A DNA stretch of 64,000 nucleotides, taken from assembly GCA_015060325.1 (NCBI GenBank), contig SUYQ01000003.1:20528-84527 (forward strand), read 5' to 3'. Of the stretch, positions 23,827-60,589 are shown piece by piece. Source of the stretch: Bacteroidales bacterium (GTDB lineage: Bacteria; Bacteroidota; Bacteroidia; Bacteroidales; UBA932). A program made the position numbers and the translations under genes. Numbering within the stretch: the stretch's first letter is position 1; every line of letters starts with the position of its first letter. Below the pieces are notes generated by a model, which saw only the letters and a list, made by a program, of their open reading frames with translations, was not told the DNA's origin and did not search any database.

Positions 23827-23908
23827 AGATTCTTCGCTGACGCTCAGAATGACAGTGGGAAGCGCTCAGAATGACAGTGGGGAGCGCTCAGAATGACAGT
23901 GGAAAGCG
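23827..23908 (+). repeat. REP-like palindrome AGATTCTTCGCTGACGCTCAGAATGACA plus 22-bp tandem copies of its GTCAT-tagged half
   Basis: CGCTCAGAATGACAGTGG at 23841, 23863 and 23885. Confidence 0.9.
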
Positions 23909-23926
23909 CCCCCAAAGTGGGTGTGG

Positions 23927-47514: not shown

Positions 47515-47561
47515 GTCTATATTATTATTTTCTTTTATTTCGGATTCTGTTTCCGGTTCCC

Positions 47562-47666
47562 CACTGTCATTTCGAGCGAGCGAAGCCCCACTGTCATTTC
47601 GAGCGAGCGAAGAGAGTCGAGACAATCGACGAAGTCGCTTGAGCGTCAGCGAAAGAATCTCCAGCC
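47562..47666. repeat. REP-like mosaic: two 27-bp CACTGTCATTTCGAGCGAG units plus an inverted AGATTCTTTCGCTGACGCTC element
   Basis: Units at 47562 and 47589; 47641-47660 is the reverse complement of the 23827 element head. Confidence 0.88.
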
Positions 47667-47681
47667 GCCAAAGATACGAAT

Positions 47682-48704
47682 TTATTCGTACTCCGTAATC
47701 TTCAACCGGTATTTATTGCTACCCAGATTCTGAAAATACCGGGGAACGTCCTGCATCTCCTGTCCGATAATCCCGGTCATCCCCGACCTGACAGTTCCGG
47801 TCATCCCCGGTTTGACATCCCCCGTCATCCCCGGCTTGACCGGGGATCTCCTCCACTGCCCGTCAACACAGAACAGCACCGGATCCTTCACGCCCTCAAG
47901 TTTAAACCCAAGCTGCTCATATACAGCGCCTTCTGACCACTCCAAGTCAGCGTAGCTCATCACATCATCCGGATGCACATCATCTATAAAAGCCTTGAGC
48001 ATCTTGCCCATGCCGCCATTGATCCTCACGCCAGGGAGGGATGCATACCGTGTCCATTCATAAGACCGTATCGTCTTCTCCCCCTTCTGCCACTTTCGGG
48101 CATTGGAAAACGTAGCCACCGCCACCAGACTCCCCGGCTCTACCCAACTGTCATTTCGAGCAAGCGAGTCCACACTGCCATTTCGAACAATCGAGTCCCC
48201 ACGGTCATTTCGAGCGAGAGAGCCTACACTGTCATTTCGAGCGAGCGAAGCGAGTCGAGAAATCTCCAGCCACCTGCCAGTATACCGCTTCAAATACAGC
48301 CCATACCGATACCGGCACGCAGCATCACCATAGCTATGATTTTCACTCAGGAATGCCGCCGCAGTCTCCTTATCGATCTTCCTTACCTCGCAATTGCGGG
48401 CATACATCGATATGAAGATCTCGAGATGCGCCAAAAGCCTGGCTTTCATCATTTCCGGCTGACGCCTCCAGCGATCTTCAGTGATGATCACTGCTGCTGA
48501 TCCTTCTTGACTCAAAACAGCCAGCAAATTATTGATAGTTCTTGCATCCTCGCGAGCCTGCTCCTCATTTTCAGCCTGGACATCCCACGGCACCACACAC
48601 TTCCGTCCTACACTCAGCACTTCCACCCCGCAGCGGGCTTCCGCCACACAGTCAAACGCGTTAGCACAAAGAAAATCACGTATTTCGTCTGCCAAAAGAG
48701 TCAT
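47682..48704 (-). CDS. Hef/Mom-like GNAT-fold protein with a degenerate Vsr/DUF559-like N-terminus and two in-frame repeat insertions
   Basis: IITEDRW; [16 protein letters not shown]; LVAVATFS; YEWTRYAS; [13 protein letters not shown]; [16 protein letters not shown]. Start MTLLAD lies 5 nt after a TAATTTTG box (48710-48717). Confidence 0.65.
47776..47849 (+). repeat. Palindrome GTCATCCCCGGCTTGACCGGGGATCT with two further 24-bp half-copies, in frame within the CDS
   Basis: GTCATCCCCG at 47776, 47800 and 47824; encodes VKPGMTG repeats. Confidence 0.93.
48146..48265 (+). repeat. Palindrome CACTGTCATTTCGAGCGAGCGAAGCGAGTCGAGAAATCT with three further 27-bp half-copies, in frame within the CDS
   Basis: Units at 48146, 48173, 48200 and 48227; 120 nt = 40 codons (SLARNDS repeats). 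Confidence 0.93.
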
Positions 48705-48917
48705 GACCGCAAAATTACACAAAATCTTCGTTTGCCGTTGTATTTGCAGACAAATCCTGCAATCTGTGGCACAGAAAAAATTGAAAATCAGGCAATTGCC
48801 TAGCACTGCGTGCTCCCCTTTGGCGGCACGCAAATGTAGCTATACACCTAACACACAACGAATTACGCGCCACTCTCATTTATATAGTCATCCAACCCTT
48901 TGACCACCAACAACTTG

Positions 48918-48955
48918 ACTACCAACACGGTGGGTCATTTTGCCCCACCGTGTTG
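48918..48955. repeat. Hairpin CAACACGGTGGG-TCATTTTGC-CCCACCGTGTTG; 48918-48949 is a perfect inverted copy of 51191-51222
   Basis: Direct comparison of the two positions. Confidence 0.9.
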
Positions 48956-49058
48956 ATAGTTAATGCGCTGACCGATAGCGCTTTATGTGTCCATCAGATT
49001 GTAGGCATTTCGTTCATCTGGACATTTAGTGGGAGAGATTGGGAAATCAAGTTCAATA

Positions 49059-49185
49059 GTGAACATTTCGGGTGGCAGGGAAGGCAACAGCCAGGCGCGA
49101 GGAGAGCCCTTCAAGGGTAGGGCTCCCCGCAGCGCTTGAGCTGTAGTCGTCGGAGAACGTATATTCCGACGACGGTGCCGTGCAT
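49059..49185 (+). ncRNA. Repeated structured element (predicted four-way junction), copy 1
   Basis: Near-identical to 50948-51074 and to the reverse complement of 59892-59993; four stems predicted by eye. Whether it acts as RNA or DNA is unknown. Confidence 0.45.
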
Positions 49186-49336
49186 ATCGGTATGTAGGCC
49201 ACGATAGACCAATGATACCGGATGGGCAATATTACACATGACAGCGCAATACAACGCGTTAACTGTCAACCACTTACGTCTTTATTATGACATCAAAGCG
49301 CACGGTATCAACAATATAACATCCTGATACTCAGAC

Positions 49337-49750
49337 AGTTATATTGCGCAACCGATGAGACATTTAATATGAAAGAAGCTGACAGCAAGGGAGGTTGAAT
49401 CCTTGTTGTCAGCTTCATGTTATCAGTTCATGTTGCCTGATCATGTTACTTGATCATGTTGCCAGCTCCTGGTGCGAGCTTCATGTTTTTGCAGAACGGT
49501 ATGTTCTAGAAAGACTGGAATGTCGACCATTTCGTGTTGGCCTCGGCTGCTGTCTCAACGCCATCCGGAAGATTCACGAAGAAGTCAAATCCGGTCCAGG
49601 ACTCGATCTGGTCTACTGAGACTGCGTAGTTTGTGTAGGAATCCGAGTAGGTCTTATGCTCGAACCAGAAACCTATAGCACTTACACCCGGCAGTTCAAG
49701 CCAGGACTTGCCAGACACAGCCGGCAGCTGTGCAGCGACAGTCGTGAATG
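49337..49750 (-). repeat. Diverged direct duplicate of 51770-52067 plus 52626-52700 (nuclease 3' end, terminator and downstream flank)
   Basis: Shared CAGTTATATTGCGCAACCGATGAGACATT and AAGAAGCTGACAGCAAGG hairpin; homologous coding segments. Confidence 0.92.
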
Positions 49751-49766
49751 ACACCACCGGGCCCAT
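49506..49766 (-). pseudogene. Orphan endonuclease fragment with an in-frame internal deletion of the catalytic core
   Basis: SWLELPG joined directly to VSAIGFWFEHK; lacks the 186 codons (equivalent to 52068-52625) that include RGH; C-terminal 58 aa are 51/58 identical to the intact copy. Confidence 0.85.
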
Positions 49767-49803
49767 ATCAGTCTTTATAAAACTAACACAGCATGCTGAT
49801 TAC

Positions 49804-50736
49804 TTAAATTCTTGAGATCAATGCCTCAACCTGCTCAACTGTAAGCATAGTCAGCTTCGCCACTTGCTGCACATCCATTCCAGCTGCAAGCATATTAACA
49901 GCCACTTCTGCACGACCCTCAGCACGACCCTCAGCACGACCTTCTGCACGACCTTCTGCAAGTCCCTTCTCACGACCCTCTGCAAGTCCCTTCTCACGAC
50001 CTTCTTCCAGTCCGGTCTTAATCGCATAGGCAAATTGATTTCTCAAATCTCTTTCTGTTGTCATTTTGCTCAATATTAAAGTTCGTAAATCATCACTGCT
50101 CATTATCAGTTCACCTGTATCGAATATCTTATCAAAGACATCATGAGTCAAAGCTTTGGGACGTCCCTGCAACAGATGCATGTTCTTCAAGCAGAAATAC
50201 ATTCCTTCAAGTATATTGCCATCAAGCTCATCTTCGGTCTTCTTAAACTTTGGCAATTCAAGAAAAATGTATGTCAGTCTATTGGATAAAAGTCTATGGT
50301 GTTCTTGTTCCAACAACCTGTATACGGTTTTGACATTCGTCAGGCCCTCATTCTGTTTGAGGGTAAAATCCAAAATACTGATTACATAAATCGGACAAAA
50401 GTCATAACTGTCCTGTGCAGAATCAACTTGTTTCAGAACCTGATGCATAGAATAGTAGAGCATCCTCTCTGCATACCATTCCTGCTTTCGATTCTGAAGT
50501 TCAACAATAATTCTAGAACCATCATCTGTCTTACAGAACAAATCATAGATTGATGTTTTACGGTCACGAATATTCGGATGCATTTCCTTATCCATAAAAT
50601 CAACATCCACAATCTTCCTGTCATCAATCACCTGATTGAGAAACTCAATCATGACAGTCTTCGTAGACTCCTGTCCAAAAACCAGTTTGAAGGCATCATC
50701 GACCATCAAATCCGGATACTTTACATCTTCATGCAT
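49804..50736 (-). CDS. Rpn-family recombination-promoting nuclease / putative transposase (PDDEXK_2)
   Basis: DDAFKLVFG, IYDLFC.TDDG.RIIVELQN, ERMLYY, FLELPKF; C-terminal EGREKG/EGRAEG repeats; AVNML helix. Confidence 0.92.
   Translation of the reverse strand: MHEDVKYPDLMVDDAFKLVFGQESTKTVMIEFLNQVIDDRKIVDVDFMDKEMHPNIRDRKTSIYDLFCKTDDGSRIIVELQNRKQEWYAERMLYYSMHQVLKQVDSAQDSYDFCPIYVISILDFTLKQNEGLTNVKTVYRLLEQEHHRLLSNRLTYIFLELPKFKKTEDELDGNILEGMYFCLKNMHLLQGRPKALTHDVFDKIFDTGELIMSSDDLRTLILSKMTTERDLRNQFAYAIKTGLEEGREKGLAEGREKGLAEGRAEGRAEGRAEGRAEVAVNMLAAGMDVQQVAKLTMLTVEQVEALISRI
49906..50007 (-). repeat. 12/24-bp coding repeats in the Rpn C-terminus
   Basis: EGREKGLA x2, EGRA x4. Confidence 0.9.
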
Positions 50737-50947
50737 AAATTTTAATTTTAGATTAAACACTCCCAATACGGGCTAATAAAAATTTATGCATCCTCCCCTC
50801 AACGATTCCCCACAAATGTGCAAAAAAATCCGCACCAAGTCAACACACTGATACAGATTTTTCTTTTTATTTAACAAACTTTTTCTAAATCTTTAAATTT
50901 TTTCTTTTTTTTAATCTCCTCTGTGGTCTTCATTCCGGGTCACGTTG

Positions 50948-51074
50948 GTGAACATTTCGGGTGGCAGGGAGGGCAGCAGCAAAGTGCGAGGAGAGCCCTT
51001 CAAGGGTAGGGCTCCCCGCAGCGCTTGAGCTGTAGTCGTCGGAGACCGTATATTCCGACGACGGTGCCGTGCAT
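50948..51074 (+). ncRNA. Repeated structured element, copy 2
   Basis: See copy 1; differences are concentrated in the 5' flank and loops. Confidence 0.45.
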
Positions 51075-51148
51075 GTGTTCAGGGACTCTAGGATACGCAA
51101 ATACAACTATTGAACAAGACGACAGATAAGACAGCAGGCAAGATAATG

Positions 51149-51764
51149 GACATGTAAGTAGCTGATGATCAGCAAGATGAGTATTATGAGGGTGGGGCAA
51201 AATGACCCACCGTGTTGGTAGTTAGATAGTTGATAATCAGGAGGTTGCATGACCAAGAGAAGGCATTGAGTTCAACGATAATTTCGGTTGATTGGCTTTC
51301 CCGTCCATGAAAACGGGCAATTTCGTGGACGGGATACATCAAATTGATGGCCCCATCCATGAAAAGGACTGTTTTTGTGGATGGCGAAGTTCTGTTTAAA
51401 GTTCACGTCTATAGAAAGGGTCTATTTTGTGGAGAGAAAGACAGGACATTAGACATGTAGGTAGCTGATAGTCAGCAAGATGAGTACCGAGAGGATGGGG
51501 CAAAATGACCCACCGCATTGGTAGTTAGATAGTTGATAATCAGGAGGTTGCATGACCAAGAAAGGCATTGAGTTCAACGATAATTTCGGTTGATTGAACT
51601 GCGCCCCATCCATGAAAAGGGCTGTTTTTGTGGATGGCGCAGTTCTGTTTAAAGGTCACGCCTATAGAAAGGGTCTATTTTGTAGAGAGAAAGACAGGAT
51701 ATTAGACATGTAGGTAGCTGATAGTCAGCAAGATGAGTACCGAGAGGGTGGGGCAAAATGACCC
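51149..51764 (+). repeat. Non-coding tandem repeat: units of 303 and 253 bp plus a 60-bp partial, each with several hairpins
   Basis: GACATGTA(A/G)GTAGCTGAT starts at 51149, 51452 and 51705. Confidence 0.95.
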
Positions 51765-51806
51765 TCGGCCAGTTATATTGCGCAACCGATGAGACATTCA
51801 ATATGA

Positions 51807-51865
51807 AAGAAGCTGACAGCAAGGGAGGTTAACCTTGTAGGTTAAATCCTTGTTGTCAGCTTCTT
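51807..51865. terminator. Long hairpin downstream of the nuclease ORF (second copy near 49374-49416)
   Basis: AAGAAGCTGACAGCAAGG ... CCTTGTTGTCAGCTTCTT. Confidence 0.75.
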
Positions 51866-51887
51866 GTTTTTTGCAGAACGTTATGTT

Positions 51888-53006
51888 CTAAAAAGACTGG
51901 AATGTCGACCATTCAGCGTTGCTTTCAGCTTCTGCCTCAACAGTATCCGGAAGATTCACGAAGAAGTCAAATCCGGTCCAGGACTCGATCTTGTCTACAG
52001 AGACAGCATAGTTCGTGTAGGAGTCCGAGTAGGTCTTATGCTCGAACCAGAAACCTATAGCACTTGCGCCTGTTACCGTGCTGCCGGACTTATTGACCTT
52101 CAGGACGACCTTGTAGAAGTAGTTCGGAACCGGAACGCTCTTGGTGTCATCCTGGGCAGTCGTGTATGTTATCGACTTCGACTCCCCGACCTTATTGAAG
52201 GCCACACCGGTCACGATGTAGATCTCTTCGCTCTTCGCAATCGACTGGAGAGCGGCTTCAAGGTTCTGCCATACTCCTCCGTTGAAGTTGTTCTGGATCT
52301 GCGGAACAGAGTTGGTCACATAGAAGGTCTGCAGCTGCATCGTCTCGTTGCCGTTACGGGATGCATTCGGAATCATATGACCGCGCGAGTAGCTGTCATT
52401 GTAGCTGCTCGAACGCAGATCCACCTGATAGGACTGATCGATGCTCGGGCTGTAACTCCACTTGCTCGGGCGGCTCAGACTGCCCATATGGGACGAGTTC
52501 AGATGATATGCCGTCCACAACGAAGTGTAGGTCGACTTATCATAACAATGGGTGTAGTTGCGGTTGGCGTCAGTGGTCGAAGATCCATAATAGGTATTAA
52601 CGACGTAATCAGTTCCGCTCACCGCTCCCGGCAGCTCAAGCCAGGACTTTCCTGACACGGCAGGCACCTGTGCAGCGACAGTCTTGAATGACGTCACAGA
52701 GCCCGTGAAGGTCTGACCGCCAACCACAACATAAGACTGGACATAATATGTCGTGCCGGCAGACAGTCCCTCAACATCTGCACTGAATGAAGATGCCGTA
52801 CCGCTGTAATTGTCACATGTAATCGTTTTTGTCAAAGACGAGGAAGAAGTTCCATATCGGAATCCCACCTCCGTGGGCTCAGAAGACGCTTCCGTATACG
52901 AAGCAGACAGGCTGGCGCCTGTCTGCTCTATGTTCGTCACGGTAGTCGTCGTTACTGTTGCACCCACTGCGGGCTCATCACCCCCGACGCCTCCGCCGGA
53001 TGATGG
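51888..53006 (-). CDS. Fn3-like plus DNA/RNA non-specific endonuclease (His-Me finger) module; no signal peptide; in frame behind the upstream UGA
   Basis: SRGHMIPNA, FYVTNSVPQ..FNGGVWQNLE, YIVTG, VPNYFYKV. The frame is open from 53006 (PSSGGGVGGDEP linker); first possible own start is GTG at 52967. Confidence 0.88.
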   Translation of the reverse strand, partial: PSSGGGVGGDEPAVGATVTTTTVTNIEQTGASLSASYTEASSEPTEVGFRYGTSSSSLTKTITCDNYSGTASSFSADVEGLSAGTTYYVQSYVVVGGQTFTGSVTSFKTVAAQVPAVSGKSWLELPGAVSGTDYVVNTYYGSSTTDANRNYTHCYDKSTYTSLWTAYHLNSSHMGSLSRPSKWSYSPSIDQSYQVDLRSSSYNDSYSRGHMIPNASRNGNETMQLQTFYVTNSVPQIQNNFNGGVWQNLEAALQSIAKSEEIYIVTGVAFNKVGESKSITYTTAQDDTKSVPVPNYFYKVVLKVNKSGSTVTGASAIGFWFEHKTYSDSYTNYAVSVDKIESWTGFDFFVNLPDTVEAEAESNAEWSTFQSF

Positions 53007-55721
53007 TCACTGAAGTTTATAGATTGCAATATCTAACTGACCACTTGAATAGCAAGAGAAAATACGGCTTGAGCTATTATATCTCATCCAATTTCTTGTA
53101 TTGGTTCCATTTGCTTTAACAGTGGCAACACCTGCTGACGTAATTGATATAGTCCAAGAACTATTTGCAGACAATGTAGTTTCTGTTCTCAGATAGTTTT
53201 TAGAAGATGACGCAGCGTAAAGGTAACCAGAACCAGTATTAAAAGCATATGTTCCTGTAGTCTTACCAGTTTCAAGAGTCAATATCTGTACGTCACTGCC
53301 GAAAGTAATAGTATTACCACTCTTAGATACAGATGCTTGACCTCTGTTATTGCTATTCTGTGTAGTACTCAATGCATTATTTGAAGCACTTGCAACAATT
53401 ACCACCTGATCTCCAACAGCAAGGTTATTCACATCTGTAACTAAAGTCCAAGTTTTATCTGTCTCAACTACGTCAGATACGGTGATTTGATAAGTCGTTG
53501 TCTTGTCCTCATAGCTGACTGTTACGGTATATGTGTCAGCAACAGACATATTATAACCGTCAAAAGTAGCTGATGCAGTCACATCTTCTTTCGAGCCATC
53601 TGAATATGTTGCTGTAACAGTTGGCTTTACAAACTCCTCACCTACAGTGTATGTTGTCTTTTCACCTGATACAGCTATTGATTCCAAAGTTGCAGGTGCT
53701 TCTTCTCCCTCAACGGCTTTAATCAGATACAGATCCTGTGCCTGGGTACCAGCGTACATCGCAAAATAGTCATTACCTTGAGTACCATTAAGGCTTAAAT
53801 AACGATCTCCAGACACAAAGTTAAACGAGCCATCATCTTGTTTTGTAACAGTAAACTGTAAACCTGTCTCAGACATTACTGCTGAATTACCAGACGTCCA
53901 AGATACATACTCTTCTGATGCTACAGACTGAATTGTATATACTGATCCAGACTTAGAAACATTCCACAGTTTAGACGCAGCGACCTCTACATTATCTTCC
54001 GGCATATTTGCTCCTGCTGATACTGCTGTAAGTCTAACTGTTGAGGTACTTGTTTCTTCATTAGTCAAATAATAGTATAGAGACTCTGAGTTTCTATATG
54101 CCACAATCGCATACTGTCCAGAGTAGTCAGAATCATCAACCACCGTCGCCGAAACAGTTATATTGTAGGATGTAGTCACAGTCACTTCACCCTCAGTATA
54201 GGAAACTGTAACTTCCTTGGTTCCTTCCGACGCCAAATCATTGCCACTAAATGTAGCACCTGTTACTGTTTCAGTGCTTGCATCATCATAAGTAGCCTTA
54301 ACTGTCGGTTCAACAAACTCATCACCTACGGTATATTCGATCTGCGGATTCTCCACAGCAATCGACACCAAAGTTTTAGGTTCTGGCTCTGGAGTCTCGC
54401 CACCCTCGTTTTCGGTATAGTAAACAACAACAGAAGTAAATCCGCATGTACCTCCAATAGTGGCAGTCATCGGCTGAGTTCCGTTCGTTGGAGTAACAGT
54501 TACAGTAGTAGTATTCACTTCAGCTGAAGCATTTGTCCAAGAACTACCCGAAAGAGCAGTTGCATAGTTTGCTGATGTTGCAGTAAAGACAACAGATGTA
54601 ATCTTGTATCCAGTCTTAGAAGCAATGGTCAAGACACTATTTTTGTAGAACCTTGTACTAGTCCTGCTGTCGCTATTACCACCATAATAATTGTTTGTTG
54701 GAGTTGATGCACCACCCTTTTCACAATACATCTCAGCGAAATCACTTGTCCAAGCGATCTTAGTATCAGACACTTCCGATGTCTCATTTATTGACAAATT
54801 CCATGTTACATTTTCTGGTTCTGGTTCTACTACATCAGCCGAAGAAATTGTATATGGAGTAGTGTTATACTTTCCTGCCTCGAATGATATTCCGTTCAAT
54901 GTAACAGTCTTTGTGTAAGTCTTGCCCTCTGCGTCGGTAACCTTGAATGTCACATCTCCCGAGTAATTTGAGAGAGGAGCCATTACAAAGTAAACTGGAA
55001 GAGATTCGCCAGCTGCAACTGTACCATTTGTTACATTTACAGTGATAGCTGATGACTCATTTTGCTTTATAGATATAGATGGTGTTTCGAAAGACTCCAC
55101 ATTAAACACACCCGCGATATCAGCACCTTCAGCTGTCATCTCAAACTTTGCAACCTCAATTTCAGCACCTGTATTATTCTTTACATCTACCTGCATCATT
55201 GTATAGATGTGCGACATCGTTACCTGAGCAGCCTCGGTCATAGGAGTAGTGGCAGTAAAGGTACCTACGAGTGCATCATTTTCCTTGATATGAGCAGTAG
55301 GATTTGCGCAATCCTGTGACTGAGTTGCCTCAAGTTTATGCGTTGTTGATGCTCCACGATGATATGACTTCTGGTTAGCTCTAGCATACATAGCATTAAA
55401 TGTATACTCGCCATCAGATATTGTGGATCCTGTCGTAAACTTTCCATCATTGTATGCATACTCTGCTATTGTAGCAGCCTCTGTATCATTTGCATACGGT
55501 GCCCCCCAAGTACCGTCTGTCGTAACTAGATAGAGTACATCTCCTTCCTCCCACTCAACTGAAAGGCCATCTAGAGTTGTCTTTGTCTGTGCAATCTCTG
55601 CTACAAGTTCAAATGAAGAACCTTCTGCTTTGGCATTTGGGTCTTCGATTTCATTTTTCTGGCATCCTGCAAAATTAACCATAGCAGCAGCCATACCTAA
55701 CAAAAGAACTATTTTTTTCAT
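53007..55721 (-). CDS. Fimbrillin-like (type V pilin, Mfa-like) lipoprotein with two Big_3-type Ig domains and beta-rich C-terminal modules
   Basis: Lipobox FAGC; QTKTTL..VEWEEGDV pilin N-terminus; two repeats of SIAV..YTVG.EF..PTV.ATY.D..VTVSY; AT-rich sequence. Confidence 0.78.
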   Translation of the reverse strand: MKKIVLLLGMAAAMVNFAGCQKNEIEDPNAKAEGSSFELVAEIAQTKTTLDGLSVEWEEGDVLYLVTTDGTWGAPYANDTEAATIAEYAYNDGKFTTGSTISDGEYTFNAMYARANQKSYHRGASTTHKLEATQSQDCANPTAHIKENDALVGTFTATTPMTEAAQVTMSHIYTMMQVDVKNNTGAEIEVAKFEMTAEGADIAGVFNVESFETPSISIKQNESSAITVNVTNGTVAAGESLPVYFVMAPLSNYSGDVTFKVTDAEGKTYTKTVTLNGISFEAGKYNTTPYTISSADVVEPEPENVTWNLSINETSEVSDTKIAWTSDFAEMYCEKGGASTPTNNYYGGNSDSRTSTRFYKNSVLTIASKTGYKITSVVFTATSANYATALSGSSWTNASAEVNTTTVTVTPTNGTQPMTATIGGTCGFTSVVVYYTENEGGETPEPEPKTLVSIAVENPQIEYTVGDEFVEPTVKATYDDASTETVTGATFSGNDLASEGTKEVTVSYTEGEVTVTTSYNITVSATVVDDSDYSGQYAIVAYRNSESLYYYLTNEETSTSTVRLTAVSAGANMPEDNVEVAASKLWNVSKSGSVYTIQSVASEEYVSWTSGNSAVMSETGLQFTVTKQDDGSFNFVSGDRYLSLNGTQGNDYFAMYAGTQAQDLYLIKAVEGEEAPATLESIAVSGEKTTYTVGEEFVKPTVTATYSDGSKEDVTASATFDGYNMSVADTYTVTVSYEDKTTTYQITVSDVVETDKTWTLVTDVNNLAVGDQVVIVASASNNALSTTQNSNNRGQASVSKSGNTITFGSDVQILTLETGKTTGTYAFNTGSGYLYAASSSKNYLRTETTLSANSSWTISITSAGVATVKANGTNTRNWMRYNSSSRIFSCYSSGQLDIAIYKLQ

Positions 55722-55753
55722 CTTTACTTTCCTTTTAGTTGTTTGACTTACTA

Positions 55754-55909
55754 CTATTCGAACCAGTTATTGTTACCGGTTTCCCAATCTTGTGCATCGA
55801 AATCTCCCGATGCACACAGCACTCCTTCGCTCAAAACTTCGAGCGTTTTTACGGAAGGGGTTTCGTATGCTGAAACCTCTCCCATGAATTGTTTCCTTTC
55901 TAGGGTCAT
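55754..55909 (-). CDS. 51-aa small protein, MTLERKQFMGEVSAYETPSVKTLEVLSEGVLCASGDFDAQDWETGNNNWFE
   Basis: Manual translation; ends TAG-TAG-TAA; lies between the TAAATTTG box (55991-55998) and the fimbrillin gene. Confidence 0.75.
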   Translation of the reverse strand: MTLERKQFMGEVSAYETPSVKTLEVLSEGVLCASGDFDAQDWETGNNNWFE

Positions 55910-55990
55910 AATTAATTGATATTTAGTTTGTTAATATTTTCTACACACATTCCACGCGCGCATCGCATGCACAACGCGCACATTAAGCGG

Positions 55991-55998
55991 CAAATTTA
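55991..55998 (-). promoter_or_regulatory. -7 box of the sORF-fimbrillin-nuclease unit
   Basis: TAAATTTGC on minus. Confidence 0.65.
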
Positions 55999-56084
55999 GA
56001 CTATAAATTCCTGATAATCAAGAAAAATCTCCGATAGTTGAAAAACTTTCGGAGATGTCACATAATATGGCACATAGACCGGTA

Positions 56085-57071
56085 TTATTCTGCAAGATAT
56101 TTTTTAAACGAAATCCAGTCGGACGCAGTCTCAGAAACCGTCTCTATCGGGTCAGGCAGACCGGCAAAAAGATCGAGTCCAGTGAGCTTTTCAATATCGT
56201 CGACGGTGACCGTGAATTCAGAATACGAATGTCCCTTGAGGTCTTCGTGTGGGAGAAGAAATCCTATGGTCCTGGCCTCAACCACCCCATCACTTCCCCG
56301 CTCAACCTTAAGCAGAGCCTTCCAATAGCTTTCGGGCACAGGAAGAGTCTTGGAGTCGTTCTTATTGACTATGGTCCTGACGGCACTGAGCTCATCACCC
56401 TGAGAGAAAATGGCTCCCGTCACGACATAGAGCGTATCTTCCGGAGGCACTGCTGAGCGCACCGCTTCCTCCAGTTTAGCCCATATCCCTCCGTTGAATC
56501 CATGCTGGATCTGAGGAGTCATGTTTGTCGAAAAATAGGTCTGAGCCTGCATTTCAGGGACTGCACTGCGGTCTGCATTCGGGATCTGGTGGCCTCGGGC
56601 ATAGAAGTTCTTCGGGTAGTTTGCAGTCGGGACAGATACGCCATAGCCGCTGCGTACATTGGTCTGGATGACCCTGGAAAGCTGCGGATCATACCCCCAG
56701 GTCTCCTCACGTCCCTTGGATGTGTGCGCGCTGCAGAGAGGATATGCCACCCAATGGGCCGCATACAGGTCCTGGTCGTAACAGAGGGTGTAGTTGCGCT
56801 GGAGCGTTCCATTCATATGCGCTCTATGGGTCACGATATGACATCCCTCCATATCCCCCTTTCCCTGAGGCAGTTCCAGCCAGTCAGGAGTTCCGGGGCC
56901 AGCAGATGACGCCATAGCCTTGCGAGCCTTTCCGGCTCCGTCGTCAGACGGACCGTTCCCGGCATCCTGGGCAGAAGCCGATTGTGACTTGCTGCCAAAT
57001 ACGACAAAAAGCAGCAACACCAGGCTCAGGCCTAGTATCACTGCTATAGTTATTCTGGTACTTTTCTTCAT
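56085..57071 (-). CDS. Membrane-anchored DNA/RNA non-specific endonuclease
   Basis: N-terminal TM helix; NYTLCYD..AAHWVAY, YARGHQIPNAD, YFSTNMTPQ..FNGGIWAKLE. Confidence 0.93.
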   Translation of the reverse strand: MKKSTRITIAVILGLSLVLLLFVVFGSKSQSASAQDAGNGPSDDGAGKARKAMASSAGPGTPDWLELPQGKGDMEGCHIVTHRAHMNGTLQRNYTLCYDQDLYAAHWVAYPLCSAHTSKGREETWGYDPQLSRVIQTNVRSGYGVSVPTANYPKNFYARGHQIPNADRSAVPEMQAQTYFSTNMTPQIQHGFNGGIWAKLEEAVRSAVPPEDTLYVVTGAIFSQGDELSAVRTIVNKNDSKTLPVPESYWKALLKVERGSDGVVEARTIGFLLPHEDLKGHSYSEFTVTVDDIEKLTGLDLFAGLPDPIETVSETASDWISFKKYLAE

Positions 57072-57094
57072 ATCAATTTACGAGGCAGGGGTAA

Positions 57095-57195
57095 AGATCC
57101 TTCGCTTCGCTCAGGATGACAGTGAGGGGCTCAGGATGACAGTGAGGGGCTCAGGATGGCAGAGAGGGGGCTCAGGATGACAGTGAGGGGCTAAG
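57095..57195 (+). repeat. REP-like AGATCCTTCGCTTCGCTCAGGATGACA plus 20-bp tandem half-copies
   Basis: GCTCAGGATG(A/G)CAG(T/A)GAGGG at 57109, 57129, 57149 and 57170. Confidence 0.92.
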
Positions 57196-58975
57196 GCTGG
57201 ACAAACGCGAGGATCTCACCCTTGGCAACCATGTCGCCCTGCTTGGCGCATACAGCGATTATGCGTCCGTCAACCGCAGGGACGACCTCCTCCATTCCGT
57301 AGTAGGTCTGGACGTGGCCCATGGCGGTGCCGGCAACAACCTTGGTGCCGGCAACAGGCGCCGTCGAGGCGTCGTCCACGTCGATCTGCCAGAGGATCTG
57401 GCCCTTTACAGGAGCCTGGACAGGAACTGCAGACGGGTATTTCCGTACGATCTCATCCACATCGAACTTCGGCATCTCGACCACAGGGCGCTCGATGACA
57501 ATCGGCGCTCCGGCCTTGGCCTTCGCCGCCTCAAGGTCAGCGCGGAAGCGTTCCTTCGCAACGCCGCTCCTGTAGTCACGATACTGCCTCTCGTGCATAG
57601 CGAACTCGAAGAGTTCTTCTTCGTCCTGTCCGACATCCCATCCCTCTTCCTTCATCATTGCGCGGAACCTGTCGAGCTCGTTCGGGAATGCATCCTGCGG
57701 GTTGCCCGTGTAGAACTCGAGACCCTTCTGCTTTGCGAGCTCCACGATCTCCGGTGCGAGCGGGCCCGGAAGGGTTCCCATCTTGCCGAGGATCATGTTC
57801 CAGGTATCCTTGTCGATGGTTGTCCAGCGAGGCTGGCCCTTTAGGATGTTCATGAGGTTCATCAGTGCGGTGTTCTTGACATACTGGCTGAACGGGGTCA
57901 CGAGCGGCGGATAGCCCAAGCGTGGCCATACATATTCAACTTCCTGGAAGAGCATGACCATCAGCTGGTCGAGGCTGAGCTCGGCCTTGCCCTGGGCGCG
58001 GAGCGAAGCGTTGATCGCGCCGTGGAAGCCCTTGAGGTCGGCCATCATCGAGCCCATCATGCCGCCCGGGAGGCCGCAGCCGACCAGGAGCGAGCTCATG
58101 TGCGAGTTGTTAGGGTCGATCCAGTAGCCGAGGAAGTCGTCCATGAACTTCTGGGTCAGCGCCCTGACTTCCATGTAGGCGTTCATGTTCAGGTCTTTGA
58201 CCGTGAAACCGTCGGCCTTGAGCATCTCGCGGATGGTGATCACGTCAGGATGCACCTTGCCCCATGAAAGAGGCTCTACTGCCACGTCGAGGTAGTCGGC
58301 ACCGGCGCGTGCGACCTCGAGCATCGAGGCCGGAGAGAAGCCGGGGCCACAGTGGCCGTGGTACTGTACTGCTATATGCGGATATTTCTTCTTTATCTGC
58401 CTGGTGAGTTCGCCCAGGAAGGTAGGGCGGCCGATGCCTGCCATGTCCTTGAGGCAGATCTCGTCGCAGCCGTATTCAACTACCTTGTCGACCACGCCCA
58501 TGTAGTATTCGACCGTGTGGACCGGAGAGTTGGTGATCGAGAGGGCTACCTGTGAGATCATGCCGCCTTTCTTGGCGTATTCGACGCTGAGGCGGAGATT
58601 GCGGTGGTCATTCAGACCGCAGAACGATCGCGAGATGTCTGTTCCCTGTGCCTTCTTCACCTTGTACATGAGTTCGCGGACATCGGCCGGAACCGGATTC
58701 ATGCGGAGTGCGTTCAGACCGCGTTCGAGCATGTGCGTCTGGATGCCTGCCTTGTGGAAAGGGGCAGTCCATTCACGGACAGCCCTGTTAGGGTTCTCAC
58801 CGAAGAGGAGGTTGACCTGCTCGAATGCACCTCCGTTGGTCTCAACCCTGTCGAAACATCCCATATCGATGATTGCCGGAGCAACTTCCTTCAACTGACT
58901 GACAGTAGGAACATATCGTCCTGATGACTGCCACATGTCCCTGTACACAAGGGAGAATCTGATTTCTTTTGCCAT
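57191..58975 (-). CDS. Pyruvate carboxylase subunit B / oxaloacetate decarboxylase alpha-like carboxyltransferase with biotinyl-like C-terminus
   Basis: RDMWQS, ETNGGA, CLKDMAG, HGHCG, PGGM, PPLVTPFSQ; start reassigned to MAKEIRF. Confidence 0.88.
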   Translation of the reverse strand: MAKEIRFSLVYRDMWQSSGRYVPTVSQLKEVAPAIIDMGCFDRVETNGGAFEQVNLLFGENPNRAVREWTAPFHKAGIQTHMLERGLNALRMNPVPADVRELMYKVKKAQGTDISRSFCGLNDHRNLRLSVEYAKKGGMISQVALSITNSPVHTVEYYMGVVDKVVEYGCDEICLKDMAGIGRPTFLGELTRQIKKKYPHIAVQYHGHCGPGFSPASMLEVARAGADYLDVAVEPLSWGKVHPDVITIREMLKADGFTVKDLNMNAYMEVRALTQKFMDDFLGYWIDPNNSHMSSLLVGCGLPGGMMGSMMADLKGFHGAINASLRAQGKAELSLDQLMVMLFQEVEYVWPRLGYPPLVTPFSQYVKNTALMNLMNILKGQPRWTTIDKDTWNMILGKMGTLPGPLAPEIVELAKQKGLEFYTGNPQDAFPNELDRFRAMMKEEGWDVGQDEEELFEFAMHERQYRDYRSGVAKERFRADLEAAKAKAGAPIVIERPVVEMPKFDVDEIVRKYPSAVPVQAPVKGQILWQIDVDDASTAPVAGTKVVAGTAMGHVQTYYGMEEVVPAVDGRIIAVCAKQGDMVAKGEILAFVQP

Positions 58976-59130
58976 AATAGTTATAATGAGTGCTAACAAA
59001 GTTATGCAAAAGAATCCTGACAACGCAAGGGATATCGTAGAAAATAAGCGTAATATCAGATTATGGGGTCAAATACTTTACTGTGGTCAAAAATTTCACC
59101 ACACAGTATTGCAGGTTTGAAAATTTTACG

Positions 59131-59138
59131 TATCTTTG
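59131..59138 (+). promoter_or_regulatory. -7 box of the tRNA-His gene
   Basis: TATCTTTG about 19 nt upstream of the tRNA. Confidence 0.65.
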
Positions 59139-59156
59139 CAGTCCTTAAACCAACAT

Positions 59157-59231
59157 GGTGCCCATAGTTCAGTTGGTTAGAGCGTCAGATTGTGGTTCTG
59201 AATGTCGTGGGTTCGAATCCCACTGGGCACC
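59157..59231 (+). tRNA. tRNA-His(GUG), G-1 encoded, CCA not encoded
   Basis: Acceptor GTGCCCA/TGGGCAC; anticodon arm TCAGA-TTGTGGT-TCTGA; T arm GTGGG-TTCGAAT-CCCAC; discriminator C. Confidence 0.97.
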
Positions 59232-59236
59232 CTGGA

Positions 59237-59278
59237 AAACTCCTTATGATCGTCCGTTCATAAGGAGTTTCTTTTTTT
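59237..59278 (+). terminator. Intrinsic terminator after tRNA-His
   Basis: AAACTCCTTATGA-N8-TCATAAGGAGTTT followed by a T-run. Confidence 0.9.
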
Positions 59279-59744
59279 CGCGGTTGTTTTGCATTCTGTC
59301 AGACCGTCCGACATTAAAAATGCGAAAAAGTTGCCGGACGGTGCCCAAAATAGGTGTTTTATGTCAGAAATAGGGACCGTCCGACATGAATTTGGGCATT
59401 TTGATGCCGGACGCTTTTCCGGCCGACATGTGAGACCTGTCGGAATACGGTTTTCCGTAGCATCGCTTGGATGAAGCGATATGGATATGCAACCACCTGG
59501 TAGAGTGCGGCTTACCTATAAACAGATTTGCAGATATGCTGGTCGGAATGCAGCTCTACCCCCACGATACCTTTGGGCTCTACTGAGAATCCACGGATGT
59601 TTTGTCCTCCCGTCCATGGTTTTCCACTTTTCATGGACGGCTGCCACATATATCTACACGACGCCTCACTGCCACACCTCCAGAATGCTCCATTGCCTTT
59701 ATTTCGCCTTGTTCAATCGACTTTGTCGATTTCAACCGAGCCCA

Positions 59745-59881
59745 CCCTGTAATTTCTTTCGCCTTACTTAAGCGGAAAGCCGATTGCGACCGAGCCACCT
59801 TCTTGTGTGCCCCTGTCATTTCTTTCGCTGGCGCTCAAGCGGCAAGCCGATTGCGACCGAGCGGAGCGAGTGGAGAAATCT
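59745..59881 (+). repeat. Extended GTCAT...GAGAAATCT element with a 66-bp upstream partial duplicate
   Basis: CCCTGT(A/C)ATTTCTTTCGC...AAGCCGATTGCGACCGAGC at 59745 and 59811. Confidence 0.8.
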
Positions 59882-59891
59882 GGTATGTTGA

Positions 59892-59993
59892 GCGCGGCAC
59901 CGTCGTCGGAATATACGGTTTCCGACGACTACAGCGCAGGCGCTGCGGGGAGCTCGACCCTGAAGGGCTCTCCTCGTGCCTGGCTGTTGCCTT
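59892..59993 (-). ncRNA. Repeated structured element, copy 3 (inverted, more diverged)
   Basis: Reverse complement matches 49081-49181, with stem-preserving changes. Confidence 0.45.
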
Positions 59994-60203
59994 TTAGCCC
60001 ATATATATGTTTGCGCACGTGCTCGAAGGGCGGTTTGGGTTAATGGAAACGGAGTGCTTGGTCATGAAATGCCTCAAACTCGGCCAAGCGGTGTGGATTT
60101 TATGCTGAAAATGCTTTTTTGTAGTACCGCTTGTGCCTAAATCGCTCGAAACTCGTCCAAGCGGTTTACTTTGCTGACTCGGAGTTCTGCGGGGTATCCG
60201 TAA

Positions 60204-60426
60204 AGATCCTTCGCTGCGCTCAGGATGACAGTGGTGACAAAGCTCAGGATGACAGTGGTGACAAGACTCAGGATGACAGTGGTGACAAAGCTCAGGATGA
60301 CAGTGGTGACAAAGCTCAGGATGACAGTGGTGACAAAGCTCAGAATGACAGTGGTGACAAAACTCAGGACGACAGTGGTGACAAAACGCAGGAGGACAGT
60401 GGTGACAAAACGCAGGATGACAGTGG
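60204..60426 (+). repeat. REP-like AGATCCTTCGCTGCGCTCAGGATGACA plus nine 24-bp tandem units
   Basis: (G/A)CTCAGGATGACAGTGGTGACAAA every 24 bp from 60218 to 60410, degrading distally; a related degenerate element at 60441-60498. Confidence 0.95.
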
Positions 60427-60589
60427 GCGGTCTGTGTTCAAGATCCTCACGTCGCGTCACTCCTCAGGAGAACAGAGAATCGGTCAGGAGGACAGTGATA
60501 AAACAGCTGTCCCGTCGGAGAGGAAAGCGTTTGTTGTTCAGGTTTCTGCTTTCCGACCGACGGGGACCGGTATTTTCAAATGTATTATA

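Follow-up and report, generated by a model that had tools for sequence, protein, structure and literature searches.

A dispersed repeat with a Y-shaped fold in gut Bacteroidales, most likely REP-like and tied to Y1/HUH genes

The stretch of DNA analysed here, hereafter the window, comprises 64,000 nucleotides of a Bacteroidales bacterium (assembly GCA_015060325.1, contig SUYQ01000003.1, positions 20,528 to 84,527 of the forward strand). It carries an element of about 105 nt in three genuine copies, copy 1 at 49079..49183 and copy 2 at 50968..51072, both on the + strand, and copy 3 in the opposite orientation at 59892..59995 on the - strand, between tRNA-His and upp. A gene encoding an Rpn/PDDEXK_2 protein (49804-50766, - strand) lies between copies 1 and 2. 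An initial annotation, made from the letters alone, had described the element as a four-way junction of ~86 nt, and had proposed either an undescribed structured non-coding RNA (ncRNA) or a non-autonomous mobile element that folds as single-stranded DNA (ssDNA). The evidence presented below fits the second of these proposals: the element is most likely a repeat resembling repetitive extragenic palindromic (REP) sequences, with a link to Y1/HUH genes, and not a new class of RNA.

The three copies show 90-95% mutual identity. Copy 2, which lies within a segmental duplication, is 95% identical to copy 1 (49059-49185 versus 50948-51074, over 127 nt in a repeat comparison), and copy 3 matches both at 90-94% on the opposite strand in an alignment (59892-59993). 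Against covariance model R1, copy 1 scores 117.5 bits and copy 3 scores 119 bits; a scan of the 64-kb window with the covariance model revealed no fourth copy. The pattern of the hairpin that the initial annotation called P4 occurs exactly three times in the window at ≤3 mismatches, against 0 expected from shuffles, so that the claim of three copies is borne out, and the bases quoted for them lie where they had been placed. The element is richer in G+C (64%) than the window (47.7%). Immediately upstream, at 49059..49078 on the + strand, lies the module GTGAACATTTCGGGTGGCAGG, which is common to copies 1 and 2 and to many homologues and which is a separate repeat unit of a mosaic.

With regard to the fold, the minimum-free-energy structure of all three copies under RNA parameters is a Y-shaped three-way junction, with folding z-scores of -6.5, -4.8, and -3.6 relative to shuffled sequence. 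DNA energy parameters give the Y shape again, on both strands. In copy 1, all parts of which are given on the + strand, the closing stem (P1) pairs GGCA (49083..49086) with TGCC (49176-49179). The lower stems of a long hairpin are formed by ACAGC and CAGGCGC (49087..49098), which pair with 49132-49144 (GCGCTTG, a bulged A, and GCTGT). Above these stems lies a near-invariant core (49099..49131), comprising an internal loop GA/GCA, the pairs GG/CC, an A.C mismatch, the apical stem GAGC/GCTC, and a variable loop after CCTTC; the comparison of homologues gives this core as GAGGAGAGCC...GCTCCCCGCAG. The second hairpin (49146..49173) is GC-rich and formed by GTCGTCGGAG/TTCCGACGAC, with an A at 49145 before it and GG at 49174-49175 after it as junction bases.

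A covariance model built from 10 copies recovered 24 distinct copies and then 76 further distinct copies. In the two resulting alignments, both of which were fitted to the Y model and thus favour the Y fold, 93.9% and 96.0% of the pair cells are paired, and compensatory changes are observed in 22/32 and 27/32 pairs, respectively. The closing stem shows such changes in 3/4 and 4/4 pairs, and the lower stems of the long hairpin in 8/12 pairs of the first set and 12/12 of the second. Raw sequences, read without any model, display the same behaviour: in four loci (L007, L009, L012, and L015), the long hairpin has neither strand of its lower stem, and two others (L004 and L023) swap both stems for different complementary sequences. 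The predicted Y-shaped three-way junction is therefore supported by about 100 homologous sequences, whereas the four-way junction is not: in copy 1, it is less stable by 15 kcal/mol (-43.3 versus -58.3 kcal/mol for the Y). Among its four helices, covariation supports P4 and the four inner pairs of P2 (GAGC/GCTC), but P1 (GGCGC/GTGCC) and P3 (GCAGC/GCTGT), although drawable, exhibit 0 compensatory pairs in the 24 homologues, with 87% and 71% of the cells paired, respectively. RNAalifold on a plain MAFFT alignment likewise pairs GGCGC with GCGCY and not with GTGCC. When the loop-closing pair is left out, G.U pairs outnumber A.C pairs by 76 to 24, and the folding strand is therefore the one taken as sense in the initial annotation, which is the + strand for copies 1 and 2.

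Other identities were considered for the fold and rejected. A peptide reading of the core is at odds with apical loops whose lengths vary by non-multiples of three. The motifs of the kink-turn, the integron attC site, domain V of group II introns, and RNase P are unlike those of the element by eye, and the Rfam models gave no matches.

The element is a dispersed repeat. Exact-pattern scans found homologues in Candidatus Cryptobacteroides, in other Bacteroidales metagenome-assembled genomes (MAGs), and in gut and rumen metagenomes. Bacteroidales MAGs and gut metagenomes together yielded about 120 copies; no match to the element turned up among viral contigs or in plasmid and phage records. In the fragmented MAG JADILW01, at least 13 copies are spread over 9 contigs, several other MAGs carry 4-11 each, and many copies lie at the ends of contigs. 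Depth over the element in DNA metagenomes with the source organism is 10-50x that of single-copy flanks. All copies examined are intergenic, next to unrelated housekeeping genes (truB, recR, a tRNA methyltransferase gene, upp, a melibiase gene, and others), and their placement follows no rule, being upstream, downstream, co-directional, or antisense. Some copies are truncated (as in L002), others have a different second hairpin (L011, L022, and L006:3666) or comprise nothing but the core hairpin (L004, L029, and L116), and in L004 clustered copies alternate in orientation. In the window as elsewhere, other repeat modules form a mosaic around the element.

These properties bear on the possibility that the element is a structured ncRNA, whether a small RNA in many copies or an RNA module acting in cis. 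The junction and loops would then form a motif for RNA tertiary structure or for protein binding, and the repetition would be secondary. The strong covariation, the invariant nucleotides of the internal loop and the junction, and the excess of G.U over A.C on one strand would all suit an RNA, and the element sequence is present in gut metatranscriptome assemblies. Such an RNA would be new, as the initial annotation supposed when it recognised no known family: with Rfam 15, a tRNA is the sole gathering-score match in the window, nothing is found over copies 1 and 2 at E≤10, and nothing reaches the gathering score over related composites in seven other loci. However, the excess depth in RNA assemblies, about 4-fold in two runs and greater in a third whose flanks are patchily covered, is broadly as expected from the DNA copy number, and these contigs are unstranded. 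Neither a conserved promoter nor a conserved terminator was seen in the flanks, which were read by eye with no consensus scan. The orientation relative to neighbouring genes is inconsistent, truncation, module swapping, and clustering of copies are what repeat DNA typically shows, and an RNA would leave unexplained the adjacency to genes resembling REP-associated tyrosine transposases (RAYTs) that is described below. An ncRNA is accordingly unlikely, and the proposal of an undescribed structured ncRNA gene finds no positive support. The mobile-element alternative is favoured because of the dispersal, the mosaic clusters, the free orientation, the lack of a conserved promoter visible by eye, and the RAYT-like adjacency.

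This adjacency was observed at several loci. In L017, L006, and L026, two direct copies flank the gene of a 284-aa protein; in L017, this protein exhibits NHVH and Y-x3-NP motifs and matches NCBIfam REP_Tyr_transpos (E=7.6e-6). The link is convincing because of a screen for RAYT-like genes among loci fetched by the element core motif alone (90 loci, 0.57 Mb). In 7 of these 90 loci, a homologue of the L017 Y1/HUH protein is encoded, at 23-33% identity, and in six of the seven the gene lies only 17-356 nt from the element (L104, L070, L116, L088, L082, and L074). Two of the six element-adjacent proteins exceed Pfam's own Y1_Tnp cut-off and three more match REP_Tyr_transpos, a model that four proteins of this family match with E about 1e-5. 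On the assumption of one to few family members per genome, the adjacency is well beyond chance. Copies are found on both sides of the RAYT-like gene in L017/L026 and in L029. In a 60%-identical orthologue with the same AsnA-RAYT-TerB-UvrA neighbourhood, the element copies occupy different positions in the two lineages, and they therefore do not represent one inherited insertion. The Y1 gene itself is in conserved synteny across species and thus behaves as a single-copy resident, not as an insertion sequence.

In other Bacteroidales MAGs, the element also occurs in convergent composites (L051 741-1412, L060 2947-3838, L065 5430-5929, L079 44-826, L105 5962-6557, L109 900-1418, and L114 413-1290). 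In each of them, a Y copy faces a diverged Y-like copy with the core GGAGCGAGCC..GGAGCTCGCGCAG across 300-700 nt of conserved non-coding modules, including a long-hairpin module of ~190 nt (CTCGTGACATTCATCTG...CAGATGAATGTCACGAG). Several composites are present per genome, and repeat similarity extends past both of their ends.

The element could then represent the end or ends of another transposon, namely a miniature of the IS200/IS605 type with fused end hairpins or a larger non-coding composite that ends in two inverted Y-type modules. This would account for the two different hairpins within one unit of ~100 nt, for the direct copies that flank a transposase-like gene in L017 and in the window, and for the seven loci at which convergent copies bracket a spacer. 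Nevertheless, the resident behaviour of the syntenic Y1 gene argues against it, as do the lack of any conserved flanking tetranucleotide or target duplication, the undefined ends of the composites, beyond which repeat similarity continues, and the lack of a Y-like partner copy in the window. We consider this explanation very unlikely. More specifically, the hairpins of IS200/IS605 ends and of their miniatures, the palindrome-associated transposable elements (PATEs), are also strand-specific, with structures in direct orientation on either side of a gene, and they are recognised by a Y1/HUH enzyme, as may by analogy be the case here. In contrast, the gene considered here is syntenic and the two hairpins share no sequence relationship. 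Unlike in PATEs, the left flank varies from copy to copy and no tetranucleotide is conserved at the border. The element also differs from miniature inverted-repeat transposable elements, as its closing stem spans only 4-6 bp and no target duplication is visible at ~20 copies.

The closest similarity is to REP sequences and bacterial interspersed mosaic elements (BIMEs), which form "REPtrons" with RAYTs in E. coli and Pseudomonas (PMC6006769, PMC3733652, PMC3116915). Both consist of short extragenic repeats that adopt their fold as ssDNA, number tens per genome, and occur singly, in clusters of alternating orientation, or mixed with other modules. Both are found beside a resident single-copy Y1/HUH gene, and in both the stems co-vary while the recognition features are fixed. 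The differences are nevertheless considerable. The element described here joins two unrelated hairpins in a three-way junction instead of forming a simple hairpin or a doublet of the REPIN (REP doublet forming hairpin) type, it has no conserved GT[AG]G tag, and its core is near-identical across many species. Its partner protein is ~280-330 aa long, with a long C-terminal extension, and the adjacency is mostly one-sided.

Within the same phylum, the available text of Quentin et al. 2018 (PMC6006769) reports that Bacteroidetes tnpA-REP genes have, on their flanks, atypical secondary structures with copies elsewhere in the genome. This holds in particular for tnpA-REP subclass 2.6, whose structured repeats lack GTAG and lie beside a class-2 TnpA-Y1 gene, as described in the same text. 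In that description, however, the structures are weaker, were found by manual inspection, and have no Y-shaped consensus, and the median protein length is 179 aa, shorter than that of the protein considered here. The latter could belong to subclass 2.1 instead of 2.6, and for subclass 2.1 the text available from PMC6006769 reports no repeats. GTAG-tagged REPs have not been reported in Bacteroidetes (PMC3733652). Apart from the RAYT papers cited, a literature search covering Bacteroidales repeats, RAYT, and Rpn gave no publication specific to the element.

The Rpn gene deserves separate consideration, as the initial annotation had pointed out that two copies of the element flank it. This is true, but the arrangement arises from a strain-variable segmental duplication and reflects no functional pairing. 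The region 49059-49764 parallels 50948-52704, including a truncated Endonuclease_NS gene, and the variable segment of 2382 bp (49486..51867, no strand assigned) contains, besides other repeats, the 3' fragment of the endonuclease gene, the Rpn gene, and copy 2. Strains without this segment are present in metagenome runs X9 and X10, and the syntenic locus L001 has a single element copy. Direct repeats of 203 nt (49486-49688 and 51868-52070) border the segment, which looks like the product of integration by homologous recombination or of tandem duplication around Rpn.

A functional tie to the Rpn (PD-(D/E)XK) nuclease gene, with the element as its cis element or as substrate, could be suspected from the Rpn-family genes that adjoin the element in the window and in L001, L018, L023, L121, and L126, with a fragment in L077. 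PDDEXK_2 genes are, however, abundant in Bacteroidales, and given this abundance, an adjacency of ~6% would be near chance. In addition, side and orientation vary by locus, the flanking pair of the window is a segmental duplication that some strains lack, and most copies have no Rpn neighbour. Such a tie is highly improbable, and we treat the Rpn adjacency, seen in about six contexts, as co-occurrence in variable regions.

Several further observations concern this region. The Rpn gene holds an array of 12-nt (4-amino-acid) tandem repeats at 49881-50012, and strains differ by one 12-nt unit at 49910 within it. The array resembles the hypervariable four-residue repeats of Rpn toxin / intragenic antitoxin pairs, as described in the available text of PMC10400941. 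Two full Endonuclease_NS paralogues (51888-52967 and 56085-57071) and a truncated one (49506-49766), all on the - strand, are found within 8 kb and adjoin the gene of a 904-aa Big_3-domain protein.

Returning to the REP-like interpretation, a number of observations weigh against it. With regard to mobility, no target-site duplication is visible at the borders of ~20 copies, and neither a precise empty site nor an excision joint was found for copies 1-3 in eight metagenome runs, in which only the polymorphism of the 2382-bp duplication and larger replacements were observed. Copies 1 and 2 derive from the segmental duplication and not from transposition. With regard to the partner gene, there is no RAYT gene in the 64-kb window, and six other lineages of RAYT homologues (L025, L027, and L031-L038) have no element nearby; these include the near relatives L025 and L027 as well as homologues of 48-56% identity. 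With regard to the sequence, the canonical GT[AG]G foot is unconserved and its GT is part of a co-varying stem. The ~30-nt core is near-identical across hosts of 45-64% GC, which exceeds the conservation of typical REPs and would fit a functional RNA or a binding site for a host protein. As for the tag, GTAG is present before the second hairpin in 32 of 95 copies, and only AG is general (83/95). A REPIN form is not observed either, since the hairpins that make up the two arms are unrelated and a third stem closes them.

On balance, the element is probably, if not securely, an atypical REP/BIME-like module of Cryptobacteroides-like gut Bacteroidales that is handled as folded ssDNA. One strand folds into the short closing stem, the long hairpin with its almost invariant internal loops and apical stem, and the second hairpin. 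The single-copy RAYT-like Y1/HUH enzyme could recognise this folded ssDNA, for instance at the replication fork, probably through the long hairpin's invariant loops together with the fixed bases of the junction, and could cut and rejoin it, which would allow copies to spread and persist. While dispersal, folding, strand asymmetry, covariation, and gene adjacency are observed, recognition, cleavage, and mobility are proposed here by analogy with E. coli TnpA-REP and with IS200/IS605 (IS608) TnpA. Copies transcribed within neighbouring messages may also double as stable RNA structures, although the data do not need this role.

A more far-reaching possibility can also be imagined. The Y module could be a new class of substrate or cofactor for those class-2 Y1/HUH proteins of Bacteroidales that are long and extended at the C terminus and that have no defined cognate repeat, with the core as a specific three-dimensional recognition motif that possibly acts on the RNA level as well. 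We find this distinctly unlikely. If it were true, the core motif could serve as a domesticated regulatory or protective structure, beyond a mere selfish repeat.

The mosaic that surrounds the element contains further repeats. Motifs GACATTTCGGGTGA, related to tandem arrays of the window, are found immediately upstream of many Y copies. These arrays are intergenic, with units of 20-27 nt (60194-60457, 57106-57200, 47558-47622, 48142-48260, 47754-47840, and 23841-23926), and share the motif TGTCAT(CC/TT), as in GCTCAGGATGACAGTGGTGACAAA with ~10 units; the region 60180-60233 reaches ~300x single-copy depth in one metagenome. A second repeat family, found at 48901-48962 with inverted copies at 51163-51224, 51466-51527, and ~51724-51764, is built on the perfect hairpin CAACACGGTGGG-TCATTTTGC-CCCACCGTGTTG and has a metagenome depth of 10-25x that of its flanks, above that of the Y element. 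Copy 3 is separated by 660 nt from tRNA-His (59158-59232), and repeat clusters containing the Y element adjoin tRNA genes in L109 (1-299), L114 (55-219), L051 (1538-1623), and L065 (3743-3898); in L109, the cluster comes after the 3' end of a 16S rRNA gene and two tRNAs.

Work on REP/RAYT systems has dealt almost exclusively with Proteobacteria, and the Bacteroidetes literature, in the text available, notes just "atypical secondary structures" near tnpA-REP genes. For the repeat of an abundant uncultured gut lineage, a consensus supported by covariation, with a three-way junction and a near-invariant core, is now available, and the covariance model together with the candidate partner enzymes, such as those encoded at L104 1336-2187 and L017 5048-5902, makes binding and cleavage experiments possible. 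In the genomes themselves, copies of the element break short-read assemblies of Cryptobacteroides MAGs and mark variable regions with defence genes such as Rpn.

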